From: Schmidtea nova
Lineage: Eukaryota
Direction of reading: 5' to 3'
Assembly: GCA_044892505.1 (NCBI GenBank)
Contig: CM097882.1
Span: 377,208,001-377,272,000, forward strand
DNA length: 64,000 bases
In this document: piece by piece, positions 4,480 to 57,052 of the stretch
How positions within the stretch are numbered: position 1 is the first letter of the stretch
How the letters are laid out: the number at the start of each line of letters is the position of its first letter
The notes under the pieces: model-generated
Seen by the model: only the letters and a program-made list of their open reading frames with translations
Told to the model about the DNA's origin: nothing
Databases searched by the model: none
Translations under genes and position numbers: made by a program

Positions 4480-4700
4480 GAAACGCTGTAATAATTTTTA
4501 AACCTCTAGACAATATTTTGAAATTGTAAATATCAATGCTTTTCTTACATGTCTTTTTGTGCTCAATAATATTACTTTTTCTGGCATGATCTTGAACACG
4601 TGTACATAAATGATGGGCAGTCTCTCCAATGTATTTATTTATGGCCGCTCAACCACTCATACAACTTTTCTTTGAGATGAACCCAGAAACGCTTAATGAG
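4480..4700 (-). mobile_element. Penelope-like GIY-YIG relic
   Basis: Minus strand reads KYIGETAHHLCTRVQDHARKSNIIEHKKTC; frameshifted upstream. Confidence 0.6.
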
Positions 4701-5689: not shown

Positions 5690-6384
5690 TGGTTTATTTT
5701 CTTTCGGCGGGAACCCATAACAAAAGTAATTATAAACTGGCGACATAATATCCTTTATTTAAACAATATTTAAATAATTTGAAAAGAAGAAATAAAAGAA
5801 AAATTCAGTAAATTATATTGCTGGAGAAAGAGAAATCTTTCCTAATCATTCAGGAAAATTATGTGTAAAATAAAATAGATTTTCAATAAATTTTAATGGA
5901 AAAATATAAAAAACTAAGTGAGTATGAATCAAGTTTAATTTTTATTCTTCATTCTGAGCCCCTCTTTTGCCAGAACTATTCTGGGATTTAATATAGGGAT
6001 CCAGCATAAATGAGTAGACATAACCCAAATTACTTTTAAGTATTATGAAGACTTTAGCAGTTTGACATACTACACAAAAGATATATGCAAACCGGGAGCT
6101 CAGTGCTTTTTGTGAATTTCTTGGATTTATTCTTCATAATAATCAATCTGGGATCACATTATGTCTCCATTGCCAGTAAAACTATCTACACTAGCCAAAA
6201 ACGTAGAAAATGGTAATTAAAAAGGCTGAAAAATTTTTTCTTGAAGTGTCAGTCAGTTGGCAACTAAATTTGAGTGGGTTATATTTTAAAAGGACTCCCA
6301 TCTCAATCATGAGATCTAGGATATAACATGTTACTTAATTGTTTGTTGCACATCTTATATAAAATGTTTCACTTAAATGGCAAG
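5690..6384 (-). pseudogene. Probable decayed piggyBac-like transposase, possibly continuing at ~10780-10900
   Basis: Broken minus-strand pieces KH*APGLHISFV, SNLGYVYSF, LNKGYYV, and LEEYWS at ~10800; these resemble piggyBac Y.PG..ISIDE, GY.YNF, KGYH and DYWS. Judged by eye only. Confidence 0.35.
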
Positions 6385-6528
6385 TGTTGCATTTAATTAA
6401 CTCATTTTGTTAATTAATTCCAAACTTCTCTAAAACATATATAAACAGTTAAAATTAGTTTATATAAGTAGATAATTGTAATAAATAAAAAATTCAAATA
6501 ATGTCTATCGCTTTTGATAAACTTAACA
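6385..6528 (+). repeat. 5' LTR of gypsy 2 (144 bp)
   Basis: Direct repeat of 10264-10406; TGTTG...TTAACA. Confidence 0.93.

Positions 6529-8986: not shown

Positions 8987-8988
<2 letters not shown>

Positions 8989-9060
<72 letters not shown>
8989..9060. repeat. (TA)n microsatellite inside gypsy 2 pol
   Basis: About 36 TA units seen directly. Confidence 0.95.
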
Positions 9061-9063
<3 letters not shown>

Positions 9064-10263: not shown

Positions 10264-10406
10264 TGTTGGATTTAATTAACTCATTTTGTTAATTAATTCC
10301 AAACTTCTCTAAAACATATATAAACAGTTAAAAATTGTTTATATAAGTAGATAATTGTAATAAATTAAATTTCAAATAATGTCTATCGCTTTTGATAAAC
10401 TTAACA
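10264..10406 (+). repeat. 3' LTR of gypsy 2 (143 bp)
   Basis: Direct repeat of 6385-6528, preceded by a polypurine tract. Confidence 0.93.
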
Positions 10407-15351: not shown

Positions 15352-18300
15352 TAATTCTTCCATCAGATAAAAACCAATTGACTTATTGCCCTTGACACAG
15401 AACAATACAACACTCTATTTGAAGAACATCTATCAAACAATGAACCGATAAACAAAATAATCTTACCTGCATCGACTCAGATTTCATACAATAAGAAACT
15501 ATCAACACTTGCAAATATTCAAATCAACCTTCAAATCCAAGATTTACTTTTTAACTGTATTGAGCACTTACCTAGTAATATGACTATGCTACGTAAAGAC
15601 CACAAAAATCCTTTAAAAGGTAGACCTCTTATATCCGCAGTAGACATTCCTTCTACAAAACTTTCTAAAGCTCTTTCAGAAATCCTTCAAAATATATTTT
15701 GCCTTTGGTTCCTTGTCATCTTAAAAACACAACTGAATTCGTCTCTGAAATTACAAATACGTCTCTTCCGTTAAACGCATGAGAATAGTACTTCTGGGGG
15801 TTTATTGATCTTTCCAATCTTTACTGATCAATTCCTCTTCACGGAGAGAATAATATTTTCGACATCGCAGCTTCTTTCTTTGAAACTCATAAAGCCAACA
15901 CTGACCTCGCAGACTTAACTAAAGAAGACTTTATAGAACTTCTAAAATTAACAATAACTTCAGATATTGTCATAATTAAAAAAAACCATTCAAACAAATT
16001 CGTGGATTAGCCATAGGTAATAACCTTTCTCCCATCTTAGCCATTTTCTACATGAACTTTATAATCTAAGATCAGATCTTTTGTTGGGGACAAAATGTTT
16101 TTCTGGAAACGATACATCGACGACATCTTCATAGTCTCCACAATCACTCTCAATCAAATCCTATCACACGCAAATTCTACTAACACCAACATACAATTCA
16201 TTTTTGAAACACCGAAAGCAGAAGATAAAAAACTGTTTTTAGATACCATGGTAAGTTTCACAAAAGGCCAAGATACACTAAATGCAAACACCGAGCTCTA
16301 TTCTAAAAGTTTACATAGTGGTCATATCCTCCCATGGAAAAGTCCTGTTCCACTTCAACGCAACATCGCATTAGTAATAGGAAAAAGAAAGAGCCATAAG
16401 AAACTGTTCAGACGCAAACAAAGTACAAGAAACATTAGAAAACTTCAAAATACAATTCCTCCAAAAAGGATACGCTGAAGAATTTGTAAAGAAATACTTC
16501 CTTAACGAAACATACCACAATAAACCTAACAATAAGAAACGCCAGAAACATAATAGCAATAGCAAACCCAGTACATATCTAAGATTACCTTTCTTAATAG
16601 CACTACAGCCAATAAGATCACCAAAATTTTTAACCAAACATATTTGCCTATCCACAGTCGTCCTACTTTCATAACCTCCGCACCGTTAAAATCACAACTT
16701 CGAAAGACACCGATTTCCAACATCTCCAAACATAAATGTCTTTGCTGTTTCACAACCAGATTCTTTGGCTTTTCCAAAAATATAGTATATAAACTTTCTT
16801 GTCAAAAATGTGACGTTACTTACATAGGAGAAACACATAGAACCTTTCGCACCGACTTAAGGAACACACTAAAAACAAAACCAGTAATTATTACGAACAC
16901 TGGGAAAAAGTACATAAAACAACTCCATCTATAGTAGAAACAAAATGTCAGATTCTAAAATTCATTACAAAGATTAGCTTCCGAGACTTTTTACATCAAA
17001 AAATACATACAGTCCTTCAACATTCAATTCGCACAAAAAAATCATGTTTAAAAAGAAAATTAAAATAAATTTATTTTCATCCAATAAAATCATTATAAAA
17101 TAAAAAATAAATAATTAAGGTTAGTATTTAGGATTAAGTTAATATAACGGTTGTAATACACACTTGATAAAGGCTGTGTCGAAATATTGTGTACTTATTT
17201 AAAGAAATTTCGATCTATAGTCATCCATTATGGGAATTATTGATATTTATATATATTCTCAAAACATTATATAAACTAAATTTTGATCTTTCTTAGAAGA
17301 AAGGATCTTATATTAGACCACTTATGGAAAAATGTTGTAAAGTGCTAATCTAGTCGAGATAAAATATATAAACTAAATTTTGATCTTTCTTAGAAGAAAG
17401 GATCTTATATTAGACCACTTATGGAAAAATGTTGTAAAGTGCTAATCTAGTCGAGATAAAATCAGACAAAAAGTAATGAACACACTTAAGTAATTAATAA
17501 TCAGATAAGATTGTCCAAATAAGCTAAAATTTCTCTAGTTATAGAAATTGTTTTTTTAAATCAAATCATTTTTCAATTTAAGAGACAGGTATTGTAATTT
17601 TGACTATGTATCTCCAATATTATACTAATTATTTTTTTAATAAGAATAGTATTCAACAAAACCATATATTAAAATAATTAAACAAATAAAGACTACTCTA
17701 CAAACTATATATTTATTGTCCCAGATATAAATTGAATGGCAAATACATCAGACACAACAACGAAGGCCACGAACTTTTGAGGTGATTTACAGGCAATATA
17801 AATTTCTTTTTATTTTTGATGATTAATAACACAATTTAATATCCTTGTTACCGATAGAGTTTGCAAATTATAAATAAAAACTAAGTAATGTTATGTTCCA
17901 ATTTAAGAACCATTATTAATAATACTATACAAGCCGTGTGTTTTCACATTTGTATTGTACACTTAGTACTAAGTTTATTCTCTGAGGTTTCCATGGTTTA
18001 TTCTATCAGCCAATAATTATTGACGAATAAATGTAACAGTTAACAAGGCTATTATATACATGATGTATATTAGTTATATTATTGTGTATATTATTGCGTA
18101 TATTATTGTGTATTTTATCGTGTATATTATTGATATATTATTGGTTATTATAGTGATAAAACGTCTGTTAATTTTATTAAATAGGAGTCAAATATAAGCT
18201 ATTTTTTGATATACATCTTTAAAATAATCTAAAATATGCTTCAAATATTTCAACAAAGAAAACATTAAATGTTCCTTACAATGTTCCGTAGGTTTTACAA

Positions 18301-27300: not shown

Positions 27301-30300
27301 AAAAATATTTATTTGTATAAATAAAAATTTACAAACATAATAACTAATCTTACCCTCACACGTGGCATCAAAATAATACCTAACAGCGCTTGGCATAGTT
27401 ATCCATAAGCATTATACTAATAAATAAAATTTACTTAACATATTTATTTATATTAAAAGTAATTTGTGATATTATGAAACTATTATGTTTAGTTATTGAT
27501 AGACCTTGTAAGTAAATAAAATAGAAGATATTTCGAATTTTACGTGAAATATCAAAATGATAATAAATGAACAAAAAATAAAATTTACAAATTATTTGTT
27601 AAATAAAAATATTAATCATTTATTTCCTGTTCAATGGGTTTTTAAAATTTAAAAACCGTTACTAAGAAAACGGGTAAATGTTTGAAGAAGGCATTCCATA
27701 TATTTTTTCATTAGTCAAATATTTTTGTATTTCTTATCATAATGTTGAGAATCATTTCATCTAATTTCGAAAGAAACATTTTTTTGTTTTTAACAATCAT
27801 TACATTTACATCATTTTCTTGAAAGCTCTGCTTATCATCTTGTAACAAATCTGTTAACATTAGAACTACTGACGAAATTCTATACTAAAAACTAGATAGA
27901 TATGATCCATTCTATCTTATAGGTTTATTTAAAAATTACGATGTTAATGTTCATAATTAAATATTTTTTTCGTTTTTATATACTTTCTTCAAATAGAATG
28001 AATCCAAAAATATATTTAACCAATTGCAATTTATATAATAATATATTTAAATTATCATTTTTTGGTATCAACTTTAATTAAATATTAATAAATAATAAAT
28101 TAAGCCTAAAAATAAAATATTAAATTTATATTATTAATATTATAATAATATTATATGATTATATAATATTGATATATTATTAAATGTTAAATAATTAATA
28201 AATAATAAATTAAGCCCTTGCTGCAAATTTTTATTAAGTGAAAATTTTCGATTATAAAATAATCCTTATCTATCAATCTATTTAATAATTATTTAATAAT
28301 ATATTGAATTATTAGCATATACAAGAGTAGGGGATAGTGAGCGCACGGAGCCACTTTTTTCACACAGCAACGGTTGCTAGGGTAAATACACACATCAATA
28401 TATAATCCCCGAGGAACCTATTTCCAAGGTAAACACACACTTCGATATATAATCCCTGATGAATATGTTGCCAGGGTAAATACACACATCAATATATAAT
28501 CCCTTAAAAACACCTTGCTAGGGCAAACACATAATCGAGGAACCTGTTGCCAGAATAAACACGCACATTAAAGTATAATCCTCTTGCAACCTGTTGCTAA
28601 GGTAACCACATATGTCAATATATAATTATTAAAGTAACTATTGCTAAGGTAAATACGCCATTGTGTAACCGCAGGGACTACTGTTGGTAGACCTCAAAAC
28701 ATACAACACATTAATTATTACCCGTAACACACACGATAAAATGTTTTTACTTAATCGAATGACATTTTTGTTTTAATGTACTGACTAACATTTCGAGTAG
28801 TTGTTCCACATATTTTTAACTTATAACTTTAGAAAATCGAGTGTGGGAACAATGAAAACGGATGGAAATAATTCGAGAATTGTGACAATATTCGAAATTT
28901 TATAAACTATTCAGCAGCGGGGAACTATAAGAGCAAATGAAATTTATTAATATTTGTAAACAGAAATAGTTATTTTTTCATTAAATAAAAAGATTGACAC
29001 ATAAAAACAAAATGAAAACGCTGAACGATAAAACCGTTTGAAATCTTGAGAATACATAAAAACTTTGAAAATAATTAAACATAATAAATTAAATAAATAT
29101 AAAACTAAATACAATGAAACCAATTATTTTTATCAGTTTTATTCATTACATATCTGAATTTGAGAAATAATTTGAATTGAGAGCTGGATCTGGAACTAGA
29201 ACGCTAACCTGATCTTTTGATTGGTATATAAACGAGTAACACCCCTTATAATGTCCATATGCAAGACTTTCATTTTTATCCACCCAAAGTCTTTTGTCAT
29301 CAAGATTAGTCAAGGCAATCTTAGAAGATTTATTAGTAAAGAGTTGATGATTCTTACTAACTATTCGTGATTGAGCAACAGAAACTATTGAATTATTATT
29401 ATAACAATCCAGATATGACTGATGATTCAATTTAGTATCCTTCAATGTTATACCTTTAGCCTTAATGCACTCTTCATCACCTAAAAGACTGTAACACTTT
29501 GGCCTAAGGAATGCCCACTCATCATACTTGAATCCTTTATTCTCATCTTTGAATTTACCAATGACGGAATCTAGGTTCCTACTGTATAATGGGTGATTCG
29601 GATCGTAATTAGAAGTGTCAAGTAAGTTATCTCTTATCATGGCCGGTAAAAGAATATCGAGCTTACAATTCTTAATCTCCAAGAAGAAAGAATCGGTGTC
29701 ACCAGCAACGATGTTAATTTCGCAGTTGAATTCATTACGATATTTTTGTAATTCTTCATACTGCAGCTGGTACATTCTAAGTTTAGATAAATCCAGTACA
29801 GTTTGACCAATGTAGCTGGGTCTATCTAAACACAAAGAGTCCTTATTAAGTAAAACAGAAACTAGGTCATCGTCAATTCTATAAGTTTTTCTAAAAGTAG
29901 GTTTTGAAGTATACGTAATCAGTTTCGATTCTGAATTACATAGTCGTAAATTAAGTCATTTTTTAAGATTTTCAACCGTTTTCCCATAAAGACTATTATT
30001 CAAGAGTTTGTAATAGTTTTTATCTAAAGCCGTAGAAGAAGCTGCCCTAAGTTCAGTGTTCGTATCCATATACTTTTTAAATATAGGTTTCTGATTGTAC
30101 AAAAAGAAACATTTTTAACTAATAAAAATTCAAATAAATACAAATTTTATTAAAATAAATCTTCTTCATCATCTTCTTCTGTAACTTGATTGAATTCTCT
30201 GTCATTAATGTCTTTATAATGCCCGTATGCACAACTTTACTCCGTCTTTTGTAGTTTACGCTGATTTTTAGGCGATCTTACCTTCTGATGATAAGTACTT

Positions 30301-33300
30301 TCAAAGACATGCGGCTAGTCAACAATCTTTTGATTCTGCTACTATTTGTTATCTTTGTAAGAAAACTTTAGTACAACCAGTCAGAGACCATGATCACTAC
30401 ACTGGTGAATATTTGGGAGCTGCTTGTAATTCTTGTAATCAATCCCGTCGTTTATACAAGTTTTTACCCGTTATTTTTCATAATTTAAAGATCTATGACT
30501 TGCACCATATTCTTAAATATGGATTGGCTAACTTTAGTAGTTGGAAAATATCTTGTATTCCTACAACTAGTGAAAAGTTCTTGACATTGTCTGCAAGGGT
30601 TGGTGATTTAACAATTAAATTCATCGATTCTTGTCAGTTTGTTAACTCTAGTTAAAATGATGCAGTTAAGACTCTTACTTGTCTGCCTTTGACTAGATCT
30701 GAATTCACCGGGACTATTGTAGATTGTAAGGGCATTTTTCCTTATGATTTTGCAACATCTTTAGAAATCCTTAATAACACTTATGAGTTGCCACTAAAAT
30801 GGGAAGGTGTTAAACAGGCTGAATATGACAAGGCATTGGTGATTTGGAGGTAATCCCAGTGTCAAACTCTGTGTGACTATATGATGGTCTATCTTAAACT
30901 GGATGTTTTTCTTCTTGCTGATTTCTTTCAACAGTTTAGGGCTAAATCTATAGCTCACAATAGACTTGAGCCTTTGAATTTCTTGGGGATTCCAGGTATG
31001 TCGTGGGCTTCTGCGCTTATTACAAAGAAAAAACCTATTGAGTTGCTCCAGGATATGGAGATTTATAATTTTTTCGAAGGGGGGATCCGTGATGCATTGA
31101 CATTTGTCAACAAACATCACGTAGTATCCTCCGAAACGACTGAACTTTTATACATTGACATAAATAATTTATACGGATGGGCTTTAAGTCAAAAATTACC
31201 TTATGGTGAATTTAGTTGGATCACAGATCAAAATAAATTTAATTAATTAATTAAATTAATGGATGCTGATTTGGCTATTTTAACTTATGGCGTGACTTTT
31301 CAAGTGGATCTAGAAATCCCTTCAGAAATTCACGATAAATTAAATGATTTTCCGGTTGCAGCAGAGAAAATGTGTGCTCCCTGTTCAAAAGTTGAGAAGT
31401 TAATGCTTACGCATTATCCAAAGTTCAACTACGTTGTTCATTGGAGGCTTCTCAAGCTTTTTGTTTCTTTGGGTGTTAAAATAACACAAGTTCATCGGGC
31501 TGTTCAGTACAATCAGAAACCTATATTTAAAAAGTATATAGATACGAACACTGAACTTAGGGCAGCTTCTTCTACGGCTTTAGATAAAAACTATTACAAA
31601 CTCTTGAATAATAGTCTTTATGGGAAAACGGTTGAAAATCTTAAAAAACGACTTAATTTACGACTATGTAATTCAGAATCAAAACTGATTACATATACTT
31701 CAAAACCTACTTTTAGAAAAACCTATAGAATTGACGATGACCTAGTTTCTGTTTTACTTAATAAGGACTCTGTGTGTTTAGATAGACCCAGCTACATTGG
31801 TCAAACTGTACTGGATTTATCTAAACTTAGAATGTACCAGCTGCAGTATGAAGAATTACAAAAATATCGTAATGAATTCAACTGCGAAATTAACATCGTT
31901 GCTGGTGACACCGATTCTTTCTTCTTGGAGATTAAGAATTGTAAGCTCGATATTCTTTTACCAGCCATGATAAGAGATAACTTACTTGACACTTCTAATT
32001 AGGATCCGAATCACCCATTATACAGTAGGAACCTAGATTCCGTCATTGGTAAATTCAAAGATGAGAATAAAGGATTCAAGTATGATGAGTGGGCATTCCT
32101 TAGGCCAAAGTGTTACAGTCTTTTAGGTGATGAAGAGTGCATTAAGGCTAAGGGTATAACATTGAAGGATACTAAATTGAATCATCAGTCGTATCTGGAT
32201 TGTTATAATAATAATTCAATAGTTTCTGTTGCTCAATCACGAATAGTTAGTAAGAATCATCAACTCTTTACTAATAAATCTTCTAAGATTGCCTTGACTA
32301 ATCTTGATGACAAAAGACTTTGGGTGGATAAAAATGAAAGTCTTGCATATGGACATTATAAGGGGTGTTACTCGTTTATATACCAATCAAAAGATCAGGT
32401 TAGCGTTCTAGTTCCAGATCCAGCTCTCAATTCAAATTATTTCTCAAATTCAGATATGTAATGAATAAAACTGATAAAAATAATTGGTTTCATTGTATTT
32501 AGTTTTATATTTATTTAATTTATTATGTTTAATTATTTTCAAAGTTTTTATGTATTCTCAAGATTTCAAACGGTTTTATCGTTCAGCGTTTTCATTTTTT
32601 TTTATGTGTCAATCTTTTTATTTAATGAAAAAATAACTATTTCTGTTTACAAATATTAATAAATTTCATCTGCTCTTATAGTTCCCCGCTGCTGAATAGT
32701 TTATAAAATTTCGAATATTGTCACAATTCTCGAATTATTTCCATCCGTTTTCATTGTTCCCACACTCGATTTTCTAAAGTTATAAGTTAAAAATATGTGG
32801 AACAACTACTCGAAATGTTAGTCAGTACATTAAAACAAAAATGTCATTCGATTAAGTAAAAACATGTTATCGTGTGTGTTACGGGTAATAATTAATGTGT
32901 TGTATGTTTTGAGGTCTACCAACAGTAGTCCCTGCGGTTACACAATGGCGTATTTACCTTAGCAATAGTTACTTTAATAATTATATATTGACATATGTGG
33001 TTACCTTAGCAACAGGTTGCAAGAGGATTATACTTTAATGTGCGTGTTTATTCTGGCAACAGGTTCCTCGATTATGTGTTTGCCCTAGCAAGGTGTTTTT
33101 AAGGGATTATATATTGATGTGTGTATTTACCCTGGCAACATATTCATCAGGGATTATATATCGAAGTGTGTGTTTACCTTGGAAATAGGTTCCTCGGGGA
33201 TTATATATTGATGTGTGTATTTACCCTAGCAACCGTTGCTATGTGAAAAAAGTGGCTCCGTGCGCTCACTATCCCCTACTTACAAGTATACAATATTTTG

Positions 33301-39300: not shown

Positions 39301-42300
39301 AAATCGGTTCCAGTGACAAATGACAATAAAGAACAATTTGTATTAGATTACATCCATTTCATGTTAGATAAGAATGTAGCTTCAGGATTCGACGCGTTCA
39401 AAATAGGATTCTATCTAGTTTGTGTTGGTTCAGTGCTTAAATTATTCCGCCCAATAGAACTACAAGTAAATATGCAGATGATGTAATACTGAAAATGCTT
39501 AATTTATACAAATCATAAATCAAGGAAATGATGGTCGGTTGTGAGATCAATGAATGGTCTGAATTGCAAAACAACGCAGTCTATGAGGGTGATTATTGGA
39601 AAGGTCATCAGGTGATCATTTGGTTTTGGGAGGTATTTAAAGAAATTAATATTGAGAAAAAGAAACGATTTCTAAGATTTTTAACAGGATGTGACAGGGC
39701 CCCAATAACAGGGGTTACTGATTTCAAAGTGAGGAGTAAATCATTGCATTTAACATAAATATATTTTAAATTAAAATTAAAATTACATAATCAAATTAGA
39801 GTAAAAGATTTTGTAGATATTAAAACAATCATTTTATTACGTATTTTAAATAAGTATTTTAAGTTAAAATCGTGTAATTTTAATACGTTGACTGCTTTCA
39901 TAAAGGTGAATACTAAATCTGTATTGTGTACTGCGGACGGCACATGTGTCAGTTAGCGGGTTAAAATAATAAATAAAATAAAAATTTTTTAAAAAAAGAT
40001 TTTAGGATAATAATTTCAAATGAGTATTTCGCATAAGTAGTTTTACATTAAAATAGTTCAATTTGGTTTTGTTATTTTTGAAGGTTTTATTTTCAAAAAA
40101 TAATAAATTAGATAAAAATGTTATATAGATAGATTTCATAAAAAATAATTTAAGTAAGTATTTTTAAATAAAAAAATGCTCGTTTTTATTTTGTTTAAAT
40201 ATCTTCGAAGACAAAATTATTTCTTGAATTAAATAAATATTTTTGGATAAATGACTTCGGATTCTGAATTAGATGAAGATTTTCTAACAACATCTAATAA
40301 TAAATTCTTTTCATTTTTAAACTATTCAGACAAATTGCTTCTGATAAATAATCTAAATAATTAATAGAAATTTAGATAATAAGATAATTAATTTTTTTCA
40401 TTGTGAATATTTATAATTTATAGAAATTTAAAATTAATCTTTATTTAAATTAAATGAAATTTTACAAAATATTTAAAATATGTAAAAGAAAATTAAAAAA
40501 AATTATTAAATTACGATTTTAATTTTTTTATATTATATCACCGTGTACAATTATTTTGTACAGACTTAAAGCGTTCCGGAAATTGTTTCTTGAAGAAAAT
40601 AAATTGGCTCAAAGGTTTTGTAAAACACCGCAAATTGGTGGTTAAAAGTTCTTATTTGAATATTCCATCCAGTACTATTATATTACAATTGATCATAAAG
40701 TACTCCTCTTGTTGAGGGGCGGGATACATAGGATTAATATAATACACTTTTATTTTTATTAAACATCAATTTAGTTATTCCCGGAACGCCGCTGTGAGTG
40801 TGTTACTAGGTAGCAATGTCCTGTCTGAACCATTATGAGTTATCGTGCGTTTTTAATAAGATTTTTTAAGTGTATTTTGTTAAATTGTTTGAATTTTTTT
40901 TTTTATTATTATTAAATTAATTAAANNNNNNNNNNNNNNNNNNNNNNNNNNNNNNNNNNNNNNNNNNNNNNNNNNNNNNNNNNNNNNNNNNNNNNNNNNN
41001 NNNNNNNNNNNNNNNNNNNNNNNNNNNNNNNNNNNNNNNNNNNNNNNNNNNNNNNNNNNNNNNNNNNNNNNNNNNNNNNNNNNNNNNNNNNNNNNNNNNG
41101 TTAGTATTATCATAAAATCAAACAATGTGTCACAATTAAATTCATTCCATATATGTTGAGCTTTTTCATATTCATCGGTTATAACTCCTTCGCAAATCGG
41201 TGGCAACTCGTATGTATTTTGTAAAACCTCTAAAGAAGTTGCAAAATTATATGTAAATATCGCCTTCGAAGTAATAATAGTCCCTATAAATTCGGATGAA
41301 GTAAGAGGAAAATCTGTTAAAGTCTTTACAGCATCGTTTAAGCTGGAGCTTACAAATTGGCAAGAATCGATAAATTTTATAGTTAATCGACTCTTGCATA
41401 TAAAGTCAAAAACTTTTCACTTGTAGTAGGAATACAACTTATATTCCAACTTGGAAATTTATTTAAACCATATTTGAGGATATGATGTAAATCATATCCA
41501 CGTAAATTATGAAAAATTACAGGCACGATGAATCTAATTTTCTGAGAAAAATTGCATTTAAAGCAAGATGTACCCAAGTATTTACCTGTATAATGGTCAT
41601 GAACCGGATTCTTCAAAGATTTATTACACAAATAATGGGTTTTTAGCCAAAAACTGCCTTATAAGGAATTTAAATGGGTAACTGATAAGGCAAAATTAAA
41701 TAAAATAATTTATTATTGTGAATCTGCTGATTTAGAAGTATTAACTTATGGGTTTACATTAGAAGTCGATTTAGAAATTCCTGATTCGATTCACGACAAG
41801 CTGGATGATTTTCCAATTGCCTCTGAAAAGATGTGTCCACCTTTTCTCAAAGGTTGAGAAGTTGTTGCTCACGCATTATCCCAAGAAGAACTATGTTGTT
41901 CATTGGAGACTTCTCCAATTCTTTCTTTCTCTTGGAGTAAAAATAACTCATGTCCATAGGGCAATTAAATTTAAACAAGCATGTATTTTTAAGGATTACA
42001 TCGATACCAATACCAGACTTAGAGCAGAATCAAGTAATGCTCTCGGTAAAAATTATTATAAATTATTAAATAATAGTCTCTACGGTAAAACCGTAGAGAA
42101 TCTTAAAAAGCGCATAAATTTAAGATTATGTAATTCGGCTTCTAGGCTGATTACATATACTTCTAAGCCAACTTTCAAAAGGACTTTCGAAATTGACGAT
42201 GATTTGGTTGCCGTCTTGCTGAATAAGGAATCGGTGTGTTTGGATAGACCCAGCTACATTGGCCAAACTGTACTGGATCTATCTAAACTTAGAATGCACC

Positions 42301-43274
42301 AGCTTCAGCATGAAAAGTTACACAAATATTGTGACGACTTCAACTGTGAATTTAACATCGTTGCTGGGGATACTGATTCGTTTTTTCTTGAGGTTAGAAA
42401 TTTTAAGCTTGATATTCTTTTACCGGCCATGATAAGAGATAACTTGCTTGACACTTCTAATTATGATCCGAATCACTCTTTATACAGTAGGAACCTTGAT
42501 TCTGTCATTTGGAAGTTCAAAGACGAGAATAAAGGGCTTAAGTACCAGGAGTGGTTGTTTCTTAGACCTAAATATTAGTCTTTTAGGTTAAGAGGGTAAC
42601 ATTGGTGGGTACTGGCATAAAGTATCAGTTGTACCTGGATTGTTTTAATAATAACCAAATATTTTCTGTTCCCTAAACCAGAATCACGAGTAAAAATCAT
42701 CAACTATTCACTATTAGAAATGAAAAGACTGCACTGACAAACGCAGATGATAAAAAGAAAAGGGTAGCAAAAAAGAAAAGCTTGGCATATGGCCATTATA
42801 TGGAGGGGACTTGGTTATATTTCAACATACCGATCCAAGCATCAATACATATCAACAATTTCAAGATTCAGATGAAAATATCCATGATGACAGTTTTATT
42901 TAAATAAAATTTGTTCAAAAATTTAGTTGTTATTGTTTTTATTTATTTAATTATTCGTTTTATATTGTACAGATTAGTTTCAGTCTATTTTTTATCAGTC
43001 TGTCTTATATTTTATAGATGTTTTTGTCTATCTTTATAATTTTGTAATAATTTCAAGAAACTATGGTTAAATCGTAGATATAATAGCAATAATAAAAATA
43101 ATAAAAATAATAAATAAATAAGTAATAAAATAAGTAATAAATATTTAGTTTAATACTTATTGTAATTATACATGTAATTTTTTTGTTGTGCAGAGTCGTC
43201 TCATTTGTTTTTTATTTGTTTGTAATATTTTGATGAGTGTTTTCATTGAACATTTATCATTAAAGTTGTTCAAA

Positions 43275-43322
<48 letters not shown>

Positions 43323-46300
43323 AACAAAAAAAGGATAATATAAAAATAAATAATAAATAAATAACTAATTAAATAACTAATTAAAAATAATAAATAAAAT
43401 AAATAATATTAAAAAGAATATAAATTTTAAAAAATATAAATATATTAAATAATAAAAATGAATTTAATTTAATTAATTTAATATTAATAAAAAATAAAAA
43501 TTCAAACATTTATACATTTTTACAAAATACACTTAAAAGATCTTATTAAAAACGCACGATAACTCATAGCTGTTCAGACAGGACATTGTTACCTACTTGT
43601 GTTATATGGATTTTTTTACAAAATGACTTACACGATTCTTTGGTGTTTTTTTGATGGATTAATGTAGTTTCTGTATTTTTCATTTAAAACTACATGATTC
43701 GTAACAAAGTATTAAAATTTAAATAATACTGTTCTATAATACAGTTGTTCCGGTAATTTTTAAAAGTCTGCGTAGGAAAATATTTATTTAAAGAGATTGA
43801 AAATGTTAGATTCATTGATCAAAGAATTTGGATTGGAGATTGAAAGATGTAACCACCTGGTCTATTGCCTTTGATTGGATTATATATGTGTAGAATGATA
43901 GATAAGTTTCATTGTTCTAAATGTATTTAGTTTTATATTATCAAACCATTTTTCGATTTAATAACGAAGTTGACATTCGTGCTGATTACTTTTCTTATTC
44001 TATTGTTTTTTGAATTAATTGGTGTGATTGTTGGCGATTCTAAAATTTCTGTATTGCTGTTGTCATTTATATTTGTCAAATTTCATGGGTGAAATGCCAC
44101 ATACCTTGAAAAAGACTGTCCAACTTCTCTGTATTCGAGTTTCCGATCATAGTCAATATACCTTTTTGTGACGTGCTATTTTCCTATTAAATATGCCTAT
44201 TAGACGGACAGTTCCTGTAGTTTCGAAAGTTATCAAGTATGCAAAGGTTCGTATGCCCACTATAAAATTAGAACTATTATTGCCAGATTCATACATGACA
44301 AATAAAATAACATACAAGTTTAAACTTGCCTATAATCACAAATAAACATATCTAACACATAAAACGGAAGCGTCTGGCATTCTTCGCTTAAATATAATTA
44401 AATTTTTGGTCTTTGACTATTTGTCACGTTTTTTTCTCCTGGGAATATACGGTTTTCGGATCTGTTTCCAATCATATTGGTGTTTGTGAATATTATGTGA
44501 TTGTTGATGATTCTTATTTTTTTCTTTTGATCTTTATTCTATACACGTTTAATTTTTCAAATTTCATGGGTGAAATGTAACATACTTTGGAGAAGACTGA
44601 CCGTCTTTTTTGAACTCGAGTTTTAAAGCATTTTCAATTGATGATTATGGACTTCGTCTTCAATCATACTGTTGTTTATAAATATGGGAATATTTATAAA
44701 ATATTCTTAAAGAAATATTTAAAAAAGAATATGGCTTTTTAAGATTAATTTATTTAAATTAAAAATTAATTTTATCTTTTTAAATGTTTCGGCTTTTTTA
44801 TAAAATTATATTTTTCATTTTTTAAGAAAAATATGATTAATTTGTTTGAAAATCGTTTTACTTGATTTATATTGGAATGGTTTTAAATAGCACCTGATGA
44901 TGAGAAGAAGTTTCTTGAAACATATTGTGCAGAATATTTTTTTGGATAGGCGTTTGTTTATCATTATTTCAGTTATTTCATTATTTTGTTGTGCTATGAA
45001 CTGTTGTAATTAATTCATTTTGATATTTTTTGTATTTTCTATTTATTATTCTTAAATTAATGCATTCGGGAAATCATTCCTATATTACAAACTTTAAAAT
45101 TATAAAGAATGTTTACATAAGGTGTCATTTTAACTAGTGAAATGAAGATTTCGGTACTTCATTCTATAGCAAAAACAACACTGTTTGTGAAATATAATTC
45201 AAATAAAGTACAAACATTTTGGTAATGTGAAACCTGAACGATGACAATGCAATTATTTTAAATGTTAGTTTGAAATAATGATTGAAATTGAAAAATTTAT
45301 TTTAATTATATTTTCAAATAAATCATTTTTAATTATTTAATCATGATTTTCTTGATGAATTGTTCGAAATAAGCAATCCGTGAATGAAAAGTTCATATAC
45401 GCCGAAATATTAATATTAATTAAAAATAATGATATTTATAAATGACTATTTTGTATTAATAATTTAGTTTGACAATCGAATTATGTCAAAACATTCAGCA
45501 AATTTTAATTTTATTTAAATTTAAAAAATATCTATGATTTTAAAATAATAAAAAAATTTTTTTTTTTTATAATATCTTTAATAATTTTAGAATCAAATAA
45601 TTTTTTATTTTCGGATGACTGACATTATGAGTTAACCAATGCACTGAGTTCGATTATGAGTGGATTCGAGTTTCTTTTATAGCACCCTTGAGAATTAAAT
45701 GATTTCGAAACCGCATCGAATCACATATTAAAAATTATTTTAATCAGCCAATCATCCTAGTATCAAAAATAATTTCATTTTATATGATTACTTATCTGCA
45801 ATAGGATGTTATTGCAAGCTTTACTGCGTTTAATCCTATGGTTATAGAGGAATGATATGATTTTCTCATACATCTAGTTAGTAATCGAAGTTTCTTACAT
45901 GGTACTAGTGAAATCCCAAAAAAGCTCGAAAACGCCTCTCAAATTATTGAAAAAAAATTTTAATCATGTTTAATTTAATTTATTTTAATTTTAAAATTTA
46001 ATATATTGTACAATATTATAAAATGCAAAAAAAACTTTGTTCAGTTAATTACAACATAAAAATGTTTTTCTGTTATTGCAAAAACGAACAACTAAACAAA
46101 ATTATGAAATACACCTAATTCTGTTTTTACACGAATTTGATTTAACACGAATTAAAAAGAATTTTTTTTTCTCATTTTACACGAATTGCTTTGTTTTAAC
46201 ACGATTTTCAATATTCTATGAATTTTTTTTGATGTTCTTTTAATTTTTTTTATTTTCATTTTTCACAAATTATGTATACATACATTTTAACTTCGCGTTA

Positions 46301-47442: not shown

Positions 47443-50030
47443 AGTAGGTAGTCAATGGTTCTTTGGCGCACTTCAAATACTACCCACCCCCACCCCCCTA
47501 GAAAATTTTTTCTCTGCGTTTACGGGCCACTATGTTTTTCTGGCCATTTTTGTATTAGAAATTTATTGTCGGTCTTTTGTACAGGTGCGTTAGCGGGCCA
47601 TTATGTTTTTGGGTCGATCTTTTGTATTGGAAAATTTTTGTCAGTCTTTTGTACAGGGATTTTTAGCTCCGAGATTTTTCTTGGGCAAAAAGGGACTCTG
47701 GTATTTTGTACATGGAATACTGGTCGGTGTTTTTTGTACAACAATTTCTTCTCCCAGATTTTTCTAGGGCAAAAAGGGACTCTGCTAATTTTGAACTGAA
47801 ATTTTAATGGTAAATAAAAACACGTGTAAATCTTTTAAACAAGTAAAATACATTGAAATTATTTTGAATAGGATTTTCAATTCCCACAATTTCTCGGGCA
47901 AAAAGGGACTCTAGTAATGTGAGAGTTGAAATGACACAATATTTAAAATTTATTAAAAAAAAGGGTAACATTAATTTTTTGGAGAAATCAGAGTTGGTAA
48001 ATTTTTAAATATAAAATTAAATTCTTTTTCACAAAATGAAATTCTTTTTTCACAAAATTCATTTTTAAACCAATAAAAGTATTAACTAATAAAATGAAAC
48101 ATTTTTAACTAATAAAAATTCAAAAAAATAAAAAGAAACATTTTTAACTAAATTTTATTAAAATAAATCTTCTTCGTCGTCTTCTTCTGTAACTTGATTG
48201 AATTCTGTGTCATTAATGTCTTTATAATGCCCGTATGCACAACTTTCATTTTTTCCCACCCAAACCCTTTTATCCTCTTTATTACTTAGTGCAATTTTTG
48301 AATTTTTAAAGCTATATAACTGATGATTTTTTGTACCTATTCTAAATTGTGGTACACTAATCTCTGAGTTATTTAAATAACATTTTACATATGAATCGTG
48401 GTCTATTTTAGTATCCTTTATTGTTGCTCCCTTAGCTTTTGTAGTATTAGTTTTACCCAACAAGCTGTAACATTTCGGTCTAAGGAAAATCCACTCGTCA
48501 TATCCTTCACCCTTACTTTCATCTTTAAATTTCCCAATAACAGAATCCAATTTCTTGCTGTATAGTGGGTGATCAGTTGGATAATTTGATGTATCTAACA
48601 AGTTATCATTTTTCATTTCATTTAATAATATTTCTAATTTCTAGAAAAAACGAATCTGTATCGCCTGCTACGATATTTATCTGACAACTATATTTGTCGC
48701 GATATTTTTGTAAATCTTTGTATTGTAATTCGTACATTCGAAGTTTTGATAAATCAAGCACCGATTGTCCAATATAACTCGGTCTATCTAAACAAATCGA
48801 ATCTGGATTTAATAAAGCAGCAATTAAATTATCGACGATTTTAATAGATTTTTTGAAAGAAGGTTTGGATGTTTATTTAACTAGATTTTTCTCCGTTGAA
48901 CATAATCTTAAATTCATTCTCCTTTTAAGATTTTCCACTGTTTTGCCATACAGATTATTATTGAGTAATTTGAAAAAGTTTTTATCTAAAGTATTACTAC
49001 TTTTCGCCCGCAATTCAGTGTTGGTGTCTATATACTTTTTGAAAATTGGATATTGCTTAAATTTAACTGCTCTATTTATCTTTGTGACTTTAACACTAAG
49101 TTCTAAATATAATTGAAGTAATCGCCAATGAATTATATAATTCTTTTTAGGGTAATGAGTCAATAGTAATTTTTCTACTTTTGAACCTCGTGGTTTCATT
49201 TTTTCTGCAGCTACTGGGAAATCATCCAAGAAATCATGAATTTCAGCAGGTATTTCCAAATCTACCTCTAAAGTGTAACCGTAAGATATAGATTCAAGAT
49301 TTAGATTAATACAGTCATGCAAAATATTATCTAAATTATCAGTCATCCAACTAAATTATCCACAAGGTAAAGGTTGACTTAAAGTCCATCCGTAAAGATT
49401 ATTTATATCGATATACAATAATTCTGTATTTTCATCGGTTTTAACGAAGTGTTTATTTACAAAAGTCAGACCTCCTCGAATTCCCCCTTCATAAAAGCTA
49501 AACATTTCATTTTCTGTTATTAATTCTATTGGTTCATCTAAAGTCATTAAAGAAGATGACCAAGACATGCCAGGAATACCGAAGTAATTCAATGGCTCTA
49601 ATCTATTGTGAGCTATAGATTTGGTTCGAAATTGCTGAATGAAATCAGCCAAAAGAAAGCAATCAAGTTTCAAGTAAGTCATCAAATAATCTAAAAGAGT
49701 AACACAGTTTGTTTCTGTCCAAATCAGTTGTGCCTTTTCATATTCTTCTTTTGAAACACCTTTTCAGATTGGTGGTAACTCATAAGTATTTTCAAGAACT
49801 TCTAAACTTGTAGCAAAGCTATACGGAAAAATACCTTTTCAGAAACTATAGTTCCATTAAAAACCGAATTTGTCAAAGGTAAAGATTTCAACGTTTTCAC
49901 TGCCTTTGCCAAAGAATCATTCACAAACTGGTATGAGTCTATAAATCTTAAACTAATCTTGCCAACATGAGCTATCAATGAAATAAATTTTTCAGTTGTA
50001 ATAGGTATACAACCCAATGACCAATTCTTG
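47443..50030 (-). mobile_element. polB: Third Polinton: terminus, subterminal repeats and disrupted pPolB of a divergent family
   Basis: AGTAGGTAGTCAATG at 47443; GGGCAAAAAGGGACTCT at 47683, 47767 and 47896; pPolB pieces (YLKLD, GIRGG, DINNLYG, KLLNNNLYGK, RPKCYS) ending at the stop at 48158; other end not found. Confidence 0.8.
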
Positions 50031-53000
50031 AACTTATTTAATCCGTTTAAATTCTTTGTCAAAAATATTCTGAAACTTGCAACTATTAAACAACCTATAC
50101 AATAGTTCGGGTTAGTATTAAAACCATATAAGCAAAATCCAAATATGATAAATATGGTTAAAATCAAAAAAATATCAAAATAACTAAGTGTGCAAAAATT
50201 ATTAAAGTTATTAAGTTATTAAGTTTAAAGACTAACTCAAATTTTATAATAAAAACTTAGTAAAAGGTTCCTAGAAAAAGTAATTTGGAAATAAAAAATT
50301 AATTAAAAATTAATTAATCGCTCAATGGTAAGCCCGAGACAATGGAAAACCCGATCAATGAGGAAGGCCTGGAGAGCGAAAAGACCCGAGAAATTAAAGG
50401 CGAGTAATTTTCAAAGAAAATTGAGATAAGCCCACTGTACGGTAAACAAATTAATTTGTCATTATCGTCATTAACTCAAAATATTCGAGATAATATTTAC
50501 ACACAATTAGATAAATGTCCCATCAAAAGAGTATAAAAAGAAGTCAAAATAAAGACAAAACGCTGGTTGGTTGAAAATATTTACGTCAAAATTGTAAATT
50601 GAAAAACTTTAGGAAAGTTAATAGATGGAGAAAAAAGTGATTATAATAAAACTTTACTCAATGAAACATACCAGAAAAGGTGATTACCTCTTGGGTCATC
50701 TGCCTTAACGTTGAATCAAATTAAAGGAAAGTGCAAATTATTGTAAAATTGTAAATTAAAGACAAAAAGTAATTTGTTGTGACAGTCAAATAAAATTCTT
50801 GTGTTGGGTATTATTGATTTTGATAAATAAAAGGACACGAGAAGTCAGAGGTTGTAGCGATTTAGTGGTTTAAAAAATAAACCAACACAATATTGCTTAC
50901 TGTAATTATAATAACTTTACTTAAACAAAAGTTTTTAATTCTTCCAATGTCTAATGACACAATTACAATAGTAAAGTAGTAAATATTACAAAAATATAAA
51001 TTAAAAATTTAGAAAATAAGTTTTAAATATTTCTCATTTCAACATGACAATCATCATCAATCAAATGTGAGTGAAAACTCGAAGGGAATTCTTTTGTGTA
51101 TTTATCATCAATTTTAAATCAAAAGCTTTACCTGATTTATTGTGAGAAATAATTCACAGAAATAAAAATAGAAGATTCAGAAAGCCAAATTGTCTAGGTT
51201 AAGAATATGATATGAAATCGGCTTCCGTAGTTTCATAACAACTTCATTATGACAGGATCGCTCAAATTTTAATATGAAATAAACATTTTTAAAAATAATA
51301 TTTTAAATTATTTAAATTTATAATTTGTTTGCACAATATATTAAATCGATTTAGAATTTATTTCCTATTTGATGTTGACAGTAAAGCTGTAGAAATATAT
51401 AGCAATACAATTGCTTTATTAACGCTTTTTCATAATTGAATCTTTGCCACGTTAATTTAATTGTCATTTAAAATTAAAACAAATATATTAAAATATTTCA
51501 TTTAACCCTAATCATATCAATATGAGGCTCCAAGTCACATCTGAGGTGTAAAGGAACGAGCCTATGAAATTATTTACATTGAAATTTGAAAAATAATTGG
51601 CATTTATTAAATATGATAATTTTTCGTGTTAGGATATTGGAAAGTAGTGAAATCTTTACAATTAAAATGCTACAGAATTGGAGTAAAACATATACATAAA
51701 AAATAATTGAACCTGTTCAATCTAGTTTTTGCATAGAAAACAATACTGATTGGGGATCAATGGAGCATACTGAGTTGTATGCTCCATTTTAAAATTTCAG
51801 ACGTTTTTAGGGTGATTTGACTAAAATTTCAGTTAACTTATATACTAAATTATAGTTTCCTATACCCTTGTGTGGTATTGATTCTTTTTATTATTATTAC
51901 AGCACTCATTGTGCTCATAAATTTATTTTAACCCCATGGAATGTTATTATTATCATTATTATAATTAACATTGTAAGGAACAAGTAGATTAATTAATTAA
52001 ATTAACCTATTATTCAATAATAATTCAAAATCATAATTTCAAGTTAGAAATTATTTATGATGCTTGATTGTTGTGCTTGTATGTTGGTATGTGTATGTGT
52101 GTTTGGAGGTATTCTGTAACAATAATGAGTAAAACAATAAACTCCCTTTTTAGATGTTATACAATGATGAGCTATAAAAGTGTGAGTTGTATATTTGTCG
52201 TCAGAATATATTTTGGTGTATCTATNNNNNNNNNNNNNNNNNNNNNNNNNNNNNNNNNNNNNNNNNNNNNNNNNNNNNNNNNNNNNNNNNNNNNNNNNNN
52301 NNNNNNNNNNNNNNNNNNNNNNNNNNNNNNNNNNNNNNNNNNNNNNNNNNNNNNNNNNNNNNNNNNNNNNNNNNNNNNNNNNNNNNNNNNNNNNNNNNNN
52401 NNNNNNNNNNNNNNNNNNNNNNNNNNNNNNNNNNNNNNNNNNNNNNNNNNNNNNNNNNNNNNNNNNNNNNNNNNNNNNNNNNNTTAGCAGAGTTTAATAA
52501 AATTTAATAATAAGGAAACAGTGTTAAGCCTACTCCTCAATGTTTATTTAAATGAAATATTTCGATCTTAAAAAGATCAAATTATAATATAAACCATAAG
52601 TTCATGATCACTAAAATATCAATAAAAAATTTCAGTCAAGATCACAAAAAATATTTCTTTTAAAAATAAATTTTCATATTCAAATAAATAAATGATATTA
52701 TTCCTTTTTATTTACACTTAATATCATAAACATTAATAATATTTAAGAAATGGTTGAAATAAAAAGGGTTTTGAGGATAAAATGTATTCAGCTTAGGGCT
52801 GTGAAGGTTACTGAAGTTATCCATCATTTACTATGCTGAATGTTACAAAGGTATTCTTTCTTTCAGATGAATTACTTGTTTATGTAAAGTGAATCTTTAT
52901 ATATGTAATTAATAGTTCCATATTGTATTATAGAATTGAGGGGTCTACATAAAATTTCAATATTTATGGGTAATAATACGTGAATGAAAATAATCTCAAC

Positions 53001-54699: not shown

Positions 54700-56240
54700 C
54701 TTTTTTTATTATTATTATCAATAATTCTCATAATGACTATAGATCAAAATTTTTTTTTATAAACAATAACACAATATTTCGGCACAGCCTTTATCAAGTG
54801 TGTATTTCTATCGTTATATTTACTTAATACTAAATAGTAGCCTTAATTATTTTTTTAAATATTTTATAATGATTTTATTGGATGAAAAAATATATTTTAA
54901 TTTTTTTGTGCGAATTGAATGTTGATGGACAGTTTGTATTTTTTTATGTAAAAAGTCTCGGAAGCTAATCTTTGTAATGAATTTTTGAATCCCTCTTGTA
55001 GAATCTGGCATTTTGTTTCTTCTATAGATGGAGTTGTTTTATGTACTTTCTCCCAGTGTTCGTAATAATTACTGGTTTTGTTTTTAGTGTGTTCATTAAG
55101 TCGGGTGCGAAAAGTTCTATGTGTTTCTCCTATGTAAGTAGCGTCACATTTTTGACAAGAAAGTTTATATACTATATTTTTGGAAAAGCAAAAGCATCGG
55201 GTTGTGGAACGGCAAAGACATTTATGTTTGGAGATGTTGGAAATTGGTGGCTTTCGGTGTTGTGATTTTAACGGTGCGTAGGTTATGAACGTTGGACGGA
55301 CGTGGATAGGCAAATCTGTTTGATTAAAAATGTTGGTGATTTTGTTGGCTGTAGTGTCATTTAGGAAAGGTAATCTTAGATATGTTGTGTGTTTGTTATT
55401 GTTAATATGTTTCTGGCGTTTTCTATTGTTGCGTTTATTGTGGTATGGTTCGTTAAGGAAGTGTTTTTTTAGAAATTCTTCAGGGTATCCATTTTGGAGG
55501 AATTGTATTTTGAAGTTTTCTAATGTTTCTTGTAGTTTGTTTGCGTCTGAACAGTTTCTTATGGCTCTTTTTCTTTCTCCTATTAGTAATGCGATTTTGC
55601 GTTGAAATGGAACGTGGCTTTTCCATGGGAGGATATGACCGCTATGTAAACTTTTAGAATATAGCTCGGTGTTTGCATTTAGTGTATCTTGGTCTTTTGT
55701 GAAACTTACTATGGTATCTAAAAACGGTATTTTAACTTCTGTGTTCGGTGTTTCAAAAGTGAATTGTTTGTTGGTGTTAGTAGAATTTGCGTGTGATAGG
55801 ATTTGATTGAGAGGGATTGTGGAGACTATGAAGATGTCGTCGATGTATCGTTTCCAGAAAAGTATTTTGTCCCCAAAAAAAGATATGATCTTAGATCCTA
55901 TAAAGTTCATGTAGAAGATGGCTAAGATGGGAGAAAGGTTATTACCCATGGCTAATCCATGAATTTGTTTGAATGGTTTTTCTTTAATTATGACAGTATC
56001 TGAATTTATTGCTAATTTTAGAACTTCTATAAAGTCTTGTTTAGTTAAGTCTGCGAGGTCAGTATTGGTTTTATGAGTTTCAAAGAAAGAAGCTGCGATG
56101 TCGAAAATATTATTCTCTCTGTGAAGAGGAATAGATCCGTTAAGATTGGAAACGTCAAGAGATCCCCAGAAGTACTGTTGTCCTGCGTTTAACGGAAGAG
56201 ACGTATTTGTAATTTCGGAGACGAATTCAGTTGAGATAAT
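54700..56240 (-). mobile_element. 5'-truncated Penelope-like element with terminal pLTR
   Basis: Same family as 15365-17245; homology begins at ~56240. Confidence 0.92.
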
Positions 56241-56270
56241 CGAAAAGTACCAGAAATGTTCTGAATTCAT
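54897..56270 (-). CDS. Open PLE RT (QIHGLAMG, YIDD) + GIY-YIG ORF, 457 aa
   Basis: Uninterrupted frame in the ORF track; the first ~13 residues are not PLE-derived. Confidence 0.85.
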   Translation of the reverse strand: MNSEHFWYFSIISTEFVSEITNTSLPLNAGQQYFWGSLDVSNLNGSIPLHRENNIFDIAASFFETHKTNTDLADLTKQDFIEVLKLAINSDTVIIKEKPFKQIHGLAMGNNLSPILAIFYMNFIGSKIISFFGDKILFWKRYIDDIFIVSTIPLNQILSHANSTNTNKQFTFETPNTEVKIPFLDTIVSFTKDQDTLNANTELYSKSLHSGHILPWKSHVPFQRKIALLIGERKRAIRNCSDANKLQETLENFKIQFLQNGYPEEFLKKHFLNEPYHNKRNNRKRQKHINNNKHTTYLRLPFLNDTTANKITNIFNQTDLPIHVRPTFITYAPLKSQHRKPPISNISKHKCLCRSTTRCFCFSKNIVYKLSCQKCDATYIGETHRTFRTRLNEHTKNKTSNYYEHWEKVHKTTPSIEETKCQILQEGFKNSLQRLASETFYIKKYKLSINIQFAQKN

Positions 56271-57052
56271 TTCAATACGACATTCTTATTCTTGGTTTCA
56301 AAATAATATTTTCTTCATTTAGAACCCAAAAAAATGTTTGGTCAACAATGTTGGGGTTGTGTCTAAACGAGTGTGAAGTGAAATAAAAAGCACAAAAAGT
56401 AGGTGCAAATTACTTATATGACCTTATAATATGTATTATAAGAAATATCAATAAAGTGTTGAGGAAATGCAAAAGCATTGTATTTAAAATTTTTGATTAG
56501 TCTTGAAAGCGGTCATTTTCCGCTGCAGTGTGTTCGGTGATAATAACTTTTAAAACAAATTTTCATTTGAATCATTTTATTCTTATTTTCACTATTTTTT
56601 CAAAACTATAAATCATTTACTGTTATATGTCATAAAACCTGTGTATCTTTCTTTCACTCAATGTTTATTTATTTTTCTCTTAAAAGTCAGAAGATTCCCA
56701 ATCACTTGCAATCGACTTCACTTATTTCTTCCATGTTTTACTCTCAATGATTCTCACATAAATGTTTTATATACTATCTTACAGATATCTCTCATAACTG
56801 TAGAGATATACACATAACTCTACAGTTCATAACTTCCTCCTATAGCAGTAATTGTCATTCTTGATTGTCTTCATAAACTTATACGTCATACTAAAAATAT
56901 AAATAATTAATTTAACACTAAAACTTCGGCAGCTGATTGATATATTTAGGTATACGTTAAACATATCATTCATATTAATGTACTTAAATTGAAAATAAAA
57001 ACTATTTTTTAATTTACTTTAATTCTCAATTAAGGTCATAATTCTTTTATGA

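Follow-up and report, generated by a model that had tools for sequence, protein, structure and literature searches.

A broken 2.8-kb polB element of Schmidtea nova as the probable remnant of a palindromic Polinton derivative

The 64,000-nucleotide stretch of Schmidtea nova DNA analyzed here (assembly GCA_044892505.1, contig CM097882.1, positions 377,208,001 to 377,272,000 of the forward strand; hereafter the window, within which all positions are counted) carries at 40805-43597 a 2.8-kb element with the termini of a Polinton and two broken, outward-pointing pieces of a gene for a protein-primed DNA polymerase, polB. The element begins with ACTAGGTAGCAATG and finishes at 43597 with TTACCTACT, an end of the CCTACT type, and the sequence reads TGTGTT on each flank, in agreement with a first-pass annotation of the same DNA, which had set an insertion with an intact target site duplication (TSD) at 40799..43603; by hand arithmetic from the base composition, a match of all six bases exactly at both ends would arise by chance about once in 1,000-3,000. 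The terminal inverted repeats (TIRs), put at ~120 bp in that annotation, are present as inverted arms up to a stretch of Ns (40807-40925 and 43477-43595, 119 nt at 82% identity, with six differences in the outermost 76 nt), but are in truth longer: in the genome's own version of this place there is no assembly gap, and the sequence there, of 4% GC, prolongs the left arm, so that the two arms can be aligned over 316 columns (79%, with 24 mismatches and 41 gap positions) and extend to ~300 bp. The absence of a gap and the left-arm continuation rule out a polymerase hidden in the N stretch and likewise a misjoin at the 40926-41099 gap, whose closure had been called for.

The exonuclease-region piece of polB lies on the minus strand up to 41635 and the polymerase piece (Pfam DNA_pol_B_2, E 1.3e-9) on the plus strand from 41636, which bears out the outward orientation first read from ~41635. 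The description of these pieces as halves of the gene holds for their number and direction, but they are not complementary: both lack the N-terminal part of the gene as well as 292 bp that include catalytic motif A. What is retained has six indels and one premature stop, and by its sequence this copy is dead, a fossil. No microhomology is evident at the strand switch 41635/41636, and the possibility that this junction is common to other copies was rejected, no second copy being present among the best 40 of 595 candidates scored. The element is independent of the other one in the window, as first proposed, the latter having a different TSD, a polB only ~75% identical, and membership of a second family. 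The features of both are collected in Table 1.

Table 1. Features of the 2.8-kb element and of its neighbor, in window positions
Feature	Position	Strand	Basis
Left TSD, TGTGTT	40799..40804	.	Sequence
Outer ~300 bp of left arm, of the older subfamily, with terminus ACTAGGTAGCAATG and AT-rich subterminal DNA; repeats the right end in inverse orientation	40805..41108	-	Arm alignment
Broken left-arm polB piece: part of EndoVII-like motif, exonuclease motifs II and III	41109..41635	-	90.5% to bases 4417-4953 of arm L050
Junction 1 (approximate): apparent left-arm deletion linking exonuclease region to AT-rich subterminal DNA	41109..41110	.	Alignment
Junction 2: strand switch, apparent deletion across palindrome center	41635..41636	.	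Alignment, junction search
Broken right-arm polB piece: begins just past motif A, motifs B and C kept	41636..42830	+	92% to young copies
3' and subterminal region with right terminus (...CCTACT)	42831..43597	+	Best matches: old copies L091 and L092, with this region at both ends
Right TSD, TGTGTT	43598..43603	.	Sequence
Neighbor of second family: centrally deleted palindrome, 1.8-kb arms at 98.4%, TSD TACAAG	28326..33280	.	Apparent earlier stage of the same decay

Searches of the genome, with the best 40 candidates scored in each, returned 7,865 and 3,085 candidate matches to the two polB pieces, many of them as outward-pointing pairs a few kb apart. All ten outward pairs that were retrieved had multi-kb inverted arms, and the seven with both ends in view had AGTAG...CTACT ends and a perfect 6-bp TSD. 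Later sampling went by terminal motif, to avoid choosing by polB. For family A, 20 of 30 listed terminal-motif pairs were sampled (three of the 20 originally taken for their polB) and comprised 14 palindromes with polB arms (seven whole, seven partly deleted), two palindromes of the other end, two complete Polintons of 15.1-15.2 kb, and two linear polB-only copies; the 6-bp TSD was perfect in 19/20. Among 20 unpaired family-A termini, nine run into a polB arm and the rest into other or interrupted sequence. For family C, defined by the neighboring element of the window, 14 of 19 listed outer pairs were examined, and these were nine polB palindromes of 11.8-14.4 kb (TSD in 9/9, arms 96-99.9% identical), one interrupted palindrome, two complete Polintons, and two undecided cases. 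Exact terminal 16-mers number 403 for family A, 141 for an older variant, which is the type of the 2.8-kb element, and 3,784 for family C, a count that takes in inner ends and helpers (the complete Polintons), against 0, 11, and 0 for the respective controls; rough extrapolation suggests several hundred to more than 1,000 palindromes. The two families have a common plan and a homologous inner arm, with polB at 74% DNA identity.

The recurring unit is not the short element with outward halves first proposed but a near-perfect palindrome of 12-14 kb with Polinton ends and one whole, outward-pointing terminal-protein/vOTU/polB gene per arm, from which the outward orientation of the pieces would be inherited, making an inversion needless. 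A genome scan for AGTAG...CTACT pairs, suggested at the outset and carried out on samples, does find ends paired with 6-bp TSDs, but most of the pairs enclose polB palindromes, and the strand-switch junctions of the three shortened copies tested are unique among the copies scored. Two palindromes with the same polB segment and the same spacer length occupy separate loci, each with its own TSD, and the arms differ at 0-7 of ~1,284 nt within 9/9 elements, against mostly 10-40 between elements; matching copies at different TSDs indicate, on sequence grounds, that palindromes transpose as units. A polB-truncated family-C variant occupies three loci with three different TSDs, and defective forms can thus move. 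To this extent the idea of a recurring, integrable class of polB-only defective elements stands, since integrase-less derivatives with 6-bp TSDs exist.

The whole arm contains a single long open reading frame (ORF) of ~1,250 codons, directed toward the terminus. Its polB has all six catalytic motifs, and the ratio of nonsynonymous to synonymous substitution (dN/dS) between copies is 0.13-0.34. In a structure model of the first 531 residues (pLDDT 82.9), residues 127-237 resemble a Y-family little-finger/PAD domain (Z 8.1, root-mean-square deviation 2.5, 91 aligned) and residues 252-387 a viral OTU (vOTU) domain (Z 6.3, root-mean-square deviation 4.2, 107 aligned), scores that are middling taken alone and to which the domain order adds weight. 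Cys270 and His379 of the vOTU-like part are invariant in 86 sequences, and the N-terminal region matches adintovirus polB with E 3e-26. The order terminal protein (TP)-vOTU-exonuclease-palm is the described plan of Polinton polB (10.1101/2024.03.18.585575; published sources are cited, here and below, for the portions available to us), and the modeled palindrome ORF matches it. A sequence search of solved structures gave no match, and Foldseek against the PDB nothing at E 0.001. An EndoVII-like motif scores E 2e-4 to 6e-4, under the curated cut-off, and is widespread in polB homologues; it was considered as a cruciform resolvase, with nothing in favor. Putative 5' exons upstream of the long ORF have three splice-site dinucleotides invariant in 16/16 family-A arms, and no counterpart of these exons was detected in family C or in complete copies. 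There are 346 polB homologues in other organisms, where single-sequence scans found nothing and alignment scans gave no polB-spanning palindrome at 90 loci, 15 of them of at least 10 kb, a result of little weight for short-read contigs.

Neither integrase nor ATPase nor capsid-like sequence is found inside the polB palindromes or the window (for integrase, by tblastn with helper ORFs), whereas complete copies have an rve integrase, an ATPase, and capsid-like ORFs, the last assigned by inspection, as Pfam gave no match. Whole palindromes measure 11.8-14.4 kb against 15.1-15.5 kb for the complete Polintons, the polB of which is 95-97% identical to that of palindromes and the TIRs of which are at least 650 bp. 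Complete Polintons are very abundant: when one capsid-like ORF was searched for, all 150 matches scored of 15,874 candidates had 98-100% identity, and most had open frames. Two complete family-C copies (L302/L303 and L306/L307) have terminal repeats of 1.0-1.3 kb whose extent takes in the final 500 bp of polB at each end, and a complete family-A copy encodes a TATA-binding-protein domain (L060:2855-3331; Pfam TBP, E 4e-16). Palindromes often lie in or beside other Polinton sequence (L043/L044 flanks; L035/L036; L037; L041), and one Polinton hosting a palindrome has an integrase with a phospholipase-A2-like domain. There are also palindromes of 6-16 kb built on the end without polB (L057/L058, L062/L063, L086, L107/L108, L109), some with a TSD and others with inverted flanks.

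The pieces of the 2.8-kb element are collinear with a palindrome arm (L050), the left following arm bases 7037-6917 and then 4953-4417, the right following 5246-7039. Its 3' region scores 1389 and 1289 against L091 and L092, old copies with that region at both ends, and 305 and 307 against the complete Polintons L061/L067. This difference speaks against an origin from a single-arm or complete Polinton through genuine inversion of the internal exonuclease segment and deletions beside it. Such an inversion would account for two non-overlapping polB pieces separated by 292 bp of the gene, and related ends do occur on complete Polintons and on linear copies with only polB; nevertheless, both junctions are explained by two simple deletions of an abundant structure with intermediates present, and we regard an inversion as very unlikely. 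The partial-deletion intermediates are L059, L066, L152/153, L158/159, L316-L318, L091, L092/093, L104, and the neighboring element in the window. A first deletion, in the chromosome, would have removed the palindrome center and left 1.8-kb arms around a 0.8-kb spacer, a state matched by the neighbor, L059, L066, and L317; a second would have removed most of the left arm and given the present form, with L158/159 as a comparable case. Losing most of the left arm would account for the lack of overlap between the two polB pieces that survive. Instability is described for long inverted repeats when the spacer between them is short (PMC7999016).

Both deletions are tentatively placed after insertion because the strand-switch junctions have no second copy among those scored, being unique in 3/3 shortened copies tested (the 2.8-kb element, L066, and the neighbor). 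The same uniqueness is at odds with a form made before insertion, during replication, in which case short outward-pointing elements would be a mobile class of their own, as are the breakpoints of old-subfamily copies, which differ from one another. An intact TSD with both ends present, the spread of the polB-truncated variant to three loci, a 475-bp element (L012/L014) that has ends of this kind together with a TSD, and deletions already present in young copies would all suit a mobile short class, which on balance we find quite unlikely. The 2.8-kb element is, with high probability, the remnant of a palindromic parent. What tells against a palindromic parent is that Polinton TIRs of at least 650 bp would let the 300-bp left end fit a single-arm parent as well, and that the 292-bp separation of the pieces is what an inversion would also leave.

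The loop of the palindromes is a cassette that starts with AGTAG and finishes with CTACT, of ~355 bp in family A and ~815 bp in family C, bounded by two inward-facing Polinton-type ends, A and B. Because its outer neighbors are reverse complements of each other (TTTGT/ACAAA; CGGGAG/CTCCCG), with no direct repeat, the cassette is not an ordinary insertion. Of the best 30 cassette loci, 21 have the inverted inner end of the arm attached at both edges, four show a free end A, a free end B occurs in none, and five are cut on one side; the turning point of the palindrome is one cassette boundary in the 21 and falls at a homologous place in both families. A 7.2-kb one-armed copy (L143), made of arm plus cassette, is flanked by two GCCTGT and has end A as its integrated terminus, and a second (L148/149) is one-armed in the same way, with two terminal bases changed or lost and a far end of type A. 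On its A side the cassette carries terminal sequence of the helper type, matching at 82% over 92 bp in family A and at 85-95% over 520-720 bp in family C. In 8/9 copies the predicted pairing of A with B is stronger than that of A with the outer arm end R (-34 to -66 vs -7 to -36 kcal/mol; shuffles ~-10). Public contigs from two runs of one study, which may include the source sample, span arm and cassette, with end A and end B indistinguishable in them. The centers of L033/L034 and L031/L032 hold a different AGTAG-ended cassette with ~120-bp repeats at the same inner boundary, and about eight 144-bp repeats adjoin the cassette at L034:200-1400 and in homologous family-A arms. Bases 8-35 of element termini are block-like mosaics, and the same variants recur at the outer ends, the helper ends, and end A of the cassette, as though sequence were exchanged among termini.

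These structures suggest a replication cycle in which a one-armed linear replicon, A-loop-B-arm-R, would be displaced as a single strand; its 3' end, a copy of A, would pair with the nearby internal B rather than the distant R, and extension along the arm would yield R-arm-A-loop-B-arm-R. Displaced strands of the palindrome would then snap back and offer a duplex origin to the protein-primed polymerase, and an integrase from complete Polintons, which have similar ends, would insert the product with a 6-bp TSD. Doubling would bring a 7-kb molecule near the helper size of 15 kb and may matter for packaging, a size constraint on Mavericks having been discussed (PMC8097293). The logic is that of fold-back priming (PMC10622511) and of snap-back genomes (PMC8235507). 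Our reading of the 2.8-kb element as the dead, twice-deleted remnant of a 12-14-kb palindromic Polinton derivative that originated by fold-back, was copied as a hairpin by its own polB, and was integrated by a helper is, taken as a whole, probable.

It is also conceivable that the host chromosome makes or keeps the palindromes, through one-armed insertion followed by fold-back repair or conversion with no part for the element's polymerase. Fold-back priming at breaks is a host pathway (PMC10622511), arm conversion is known in Y palindromes (PMC7999016), and some palindromes (L062/063, L109) reach into their flanks without a TSD. Doubling after insertion, on the other hand, would leave no direct 6-bp TSD outside both R ends, whereas one is seen in 14/14 family-A and 9/9 family-C polB palindromes, and near-identical palindromes stand at different loci with different TSDs; a host origin is thus unlikely. 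An assembly artefact, with long-read fold-backs producing the palindromes or the junction, is extremely improbable: no listed public contig spans 41635/41636, but these contigs are too short to be informative, and more than 25 loci have different unique flanks with exact TSDs, the arms of the 2.8-kb element differ by 8%, deletions are arm-specific, and the public contigs cover arm plus cassette.

Several points weigh against the replication cycle itself. Hairpin copying, polB expression, and integration in trans are all inferred from chromosomal sequence. In the old copy L092/093 the outer ends have diverged and the TSD is imperfect, yet its inner arms are 99.5% alike with common frameshifts, which also favors the host and points to arm-to-arm conversion in the chromosome or to assembly smoothing; in view of this copy, arm identity does not decide the matter, whether it is used as a clock or to prove that arms are regenerated in each cycle. 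The host also makes fold-backs, because the palindromes L062/063 and L109 lack a TSD and continue into inverted flanks. The purifying selection seen on polB may be borrowed through exchange with complete Polintons, given the 95-97% identity, the one-armed copies could be products rather than precursors, and the A-type far end of L148/149 pairs better with A than B does.

Beyond the single locus, the palindromes may be self-replicating Polinton satellites integrated by helpers: hairpin replicons encoding only terminal protein and polymerase, present in hundreds to perhaps at least 1,000 copies, in which the fold-back cassette would toggle between a 7-kb one-armed and a 14-kb, helper-sized two-armed state and which would exchange polB and termini with helper families. 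We consider the chances of this proposal to be evenly balanced. Polinton replication and transposition have so far been modeled almost solely from gene content, and the palindromes, one-armed copies, and remnants seem to preserve precursors, products, and decaying forms from a cycle of strand displacement and fold-back. The fold-back model predicts hairpin DNA of fixed size with protein-blocked ends and a defined turning point. A polymerase-only replicon could then spread in the nucleus with a borrowed integrase, and many multi-kb inverted repeats would be a likely source of rearrangement and double-stranded RNA. If the satellite class is real, the genome would hold a record of Polinton replication, and the elements would parallel, in living form, the passage from Polinton to linear plasmid.

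Elsewhere in the window, a remnant of a third polB family (47443-50060, minus strand), ~68% identical to the other two, is directed at an end of the AGTAGGTAGTC type at 47443, for which no partner end was found within the 64 kb. ORFs at 1-3417, judged by their motifs, are presumably those of a retroelement. The window also contains a 1.5-kb inverted repeat pair at 89% (15730-17251 and 54710-56285), a 144-bp direct repeat at 96% (6385-6528 and 10264-10406), and a perfect 74-bp palindrome (8988-9061).

Among known systems, the palindromes share with Polintons/Mavericks AG-type termini, a 6-bp TSD, a protein-primed polB with the TP-vOTU-exonuclease-palm order and a nuclease-like insert, and a size of ~13-15 kb (PMC10748475, PMC8097293, PMC6431247, 10.1101/2024.03.18.585575). 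The 2.8-kb element itself has TIRs of the AG...CT type and a TSD within the 5-8-bp range, and a polB of that order, in broken pieces here and as whole ORFs in its relatives. Unlike Polintons, the palindromes are without integrase, ATPase, or capsid gene, have polB twice, and contain two extra termini inside; nor was a packaging ATPase or capsid found in the 2.8-kb element. About 95% of a palindrome is one inverted repeat, whereas TIRs of 100-1,500 bp have been reported in the published descriptions available, and in place of 13-25 kb with a unique, gene-rich interior there are 2.8 kb in the element and 11.8-14.4 kb in the palindromes, with a unique loop of 0.35-0.8 kb. The palindromes are Polinton-derived, yet stand outside membership on integrase, morphogenesis genes, and interior. 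Because published screens demanded several Polinton genes (five proteins, or integrase plus polB; PMC10748475, PMC8097293), standard searches would overlook them, and short-read assemblies would collapse them. We found no description of palindromic Polintons in the literature, with Repbase, subscription journals, and supplements outside its scope, and the available portions of PMC10680173, PMC11410931, and 10.64898/2025.12.11.693146 contain nothing on them.

Yeast fold-back priming (PMC10622511) is similar in that the center is set by a short, imperfect inverted repeat close to an end, and a unique spacer becomes the loop. Here, by contrast, a duplicated Polinton terminus serves as the repeat, and what results is a mobile element rather than a rearranged chromosome. 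Tetrahymena ribosomal DNA and Streptomyces linear plasmids are further cases of palindromes formed from a short inverted repeat near a free end. The invertron plasmids pAL2-1/kalilo (PMC1864894) are likewise protein-primed, with both ends joined to inverted copies of one target sequence, but are mitochondrial, with arms of host DNA and the polymerase in the central unit, whereas palindrome arms encode the polymerase and their central unit of 0.35-0.8 kb is non-coding. The palindromes also differ in their Polinton ends, 6-bp TSD, and arm-borne polymerase from foldback transposons, with no link to a cut-and-paste transposase seen. Foldback transposons such as FB and Galileo have very long terminal inverted repeats and internal tandem repeats, features that the palindromes share, and are mobilized in trans; they have a DDE transposase partner and a TSD of 7-10 bp, whereas here the TSD is 6 bp throughout and the arms are without a transposase ORF.

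The closest functional likeness is to snap-back defective viral genomes, with which palindromic subgenomic phi29 DNA and end repair in adenovirus minichromosomes may be compared. In adeno-associated virus (PMC8235507), such genomes have both ends derived from one parental end, self-complementary strands, and a helper for missing functions. Both palindrome termini are likewise copied from one end and self-complementary, and the missing functions are present in co-resident complete Polintons with related ends, on which the palindromes would depend. Scattered turning points are not seen, the cassette boundary being fixed in 21/30 best loci. Unlike snap-back defective genomes, the palindromes are inherited in the chromosomes as a lineage whose loop cassette is fixed, many copies keep an intact replicase, and they integrate with a TSD; by analogy, they appear to work like a snap-back defective genome turned stable transposon lineage.

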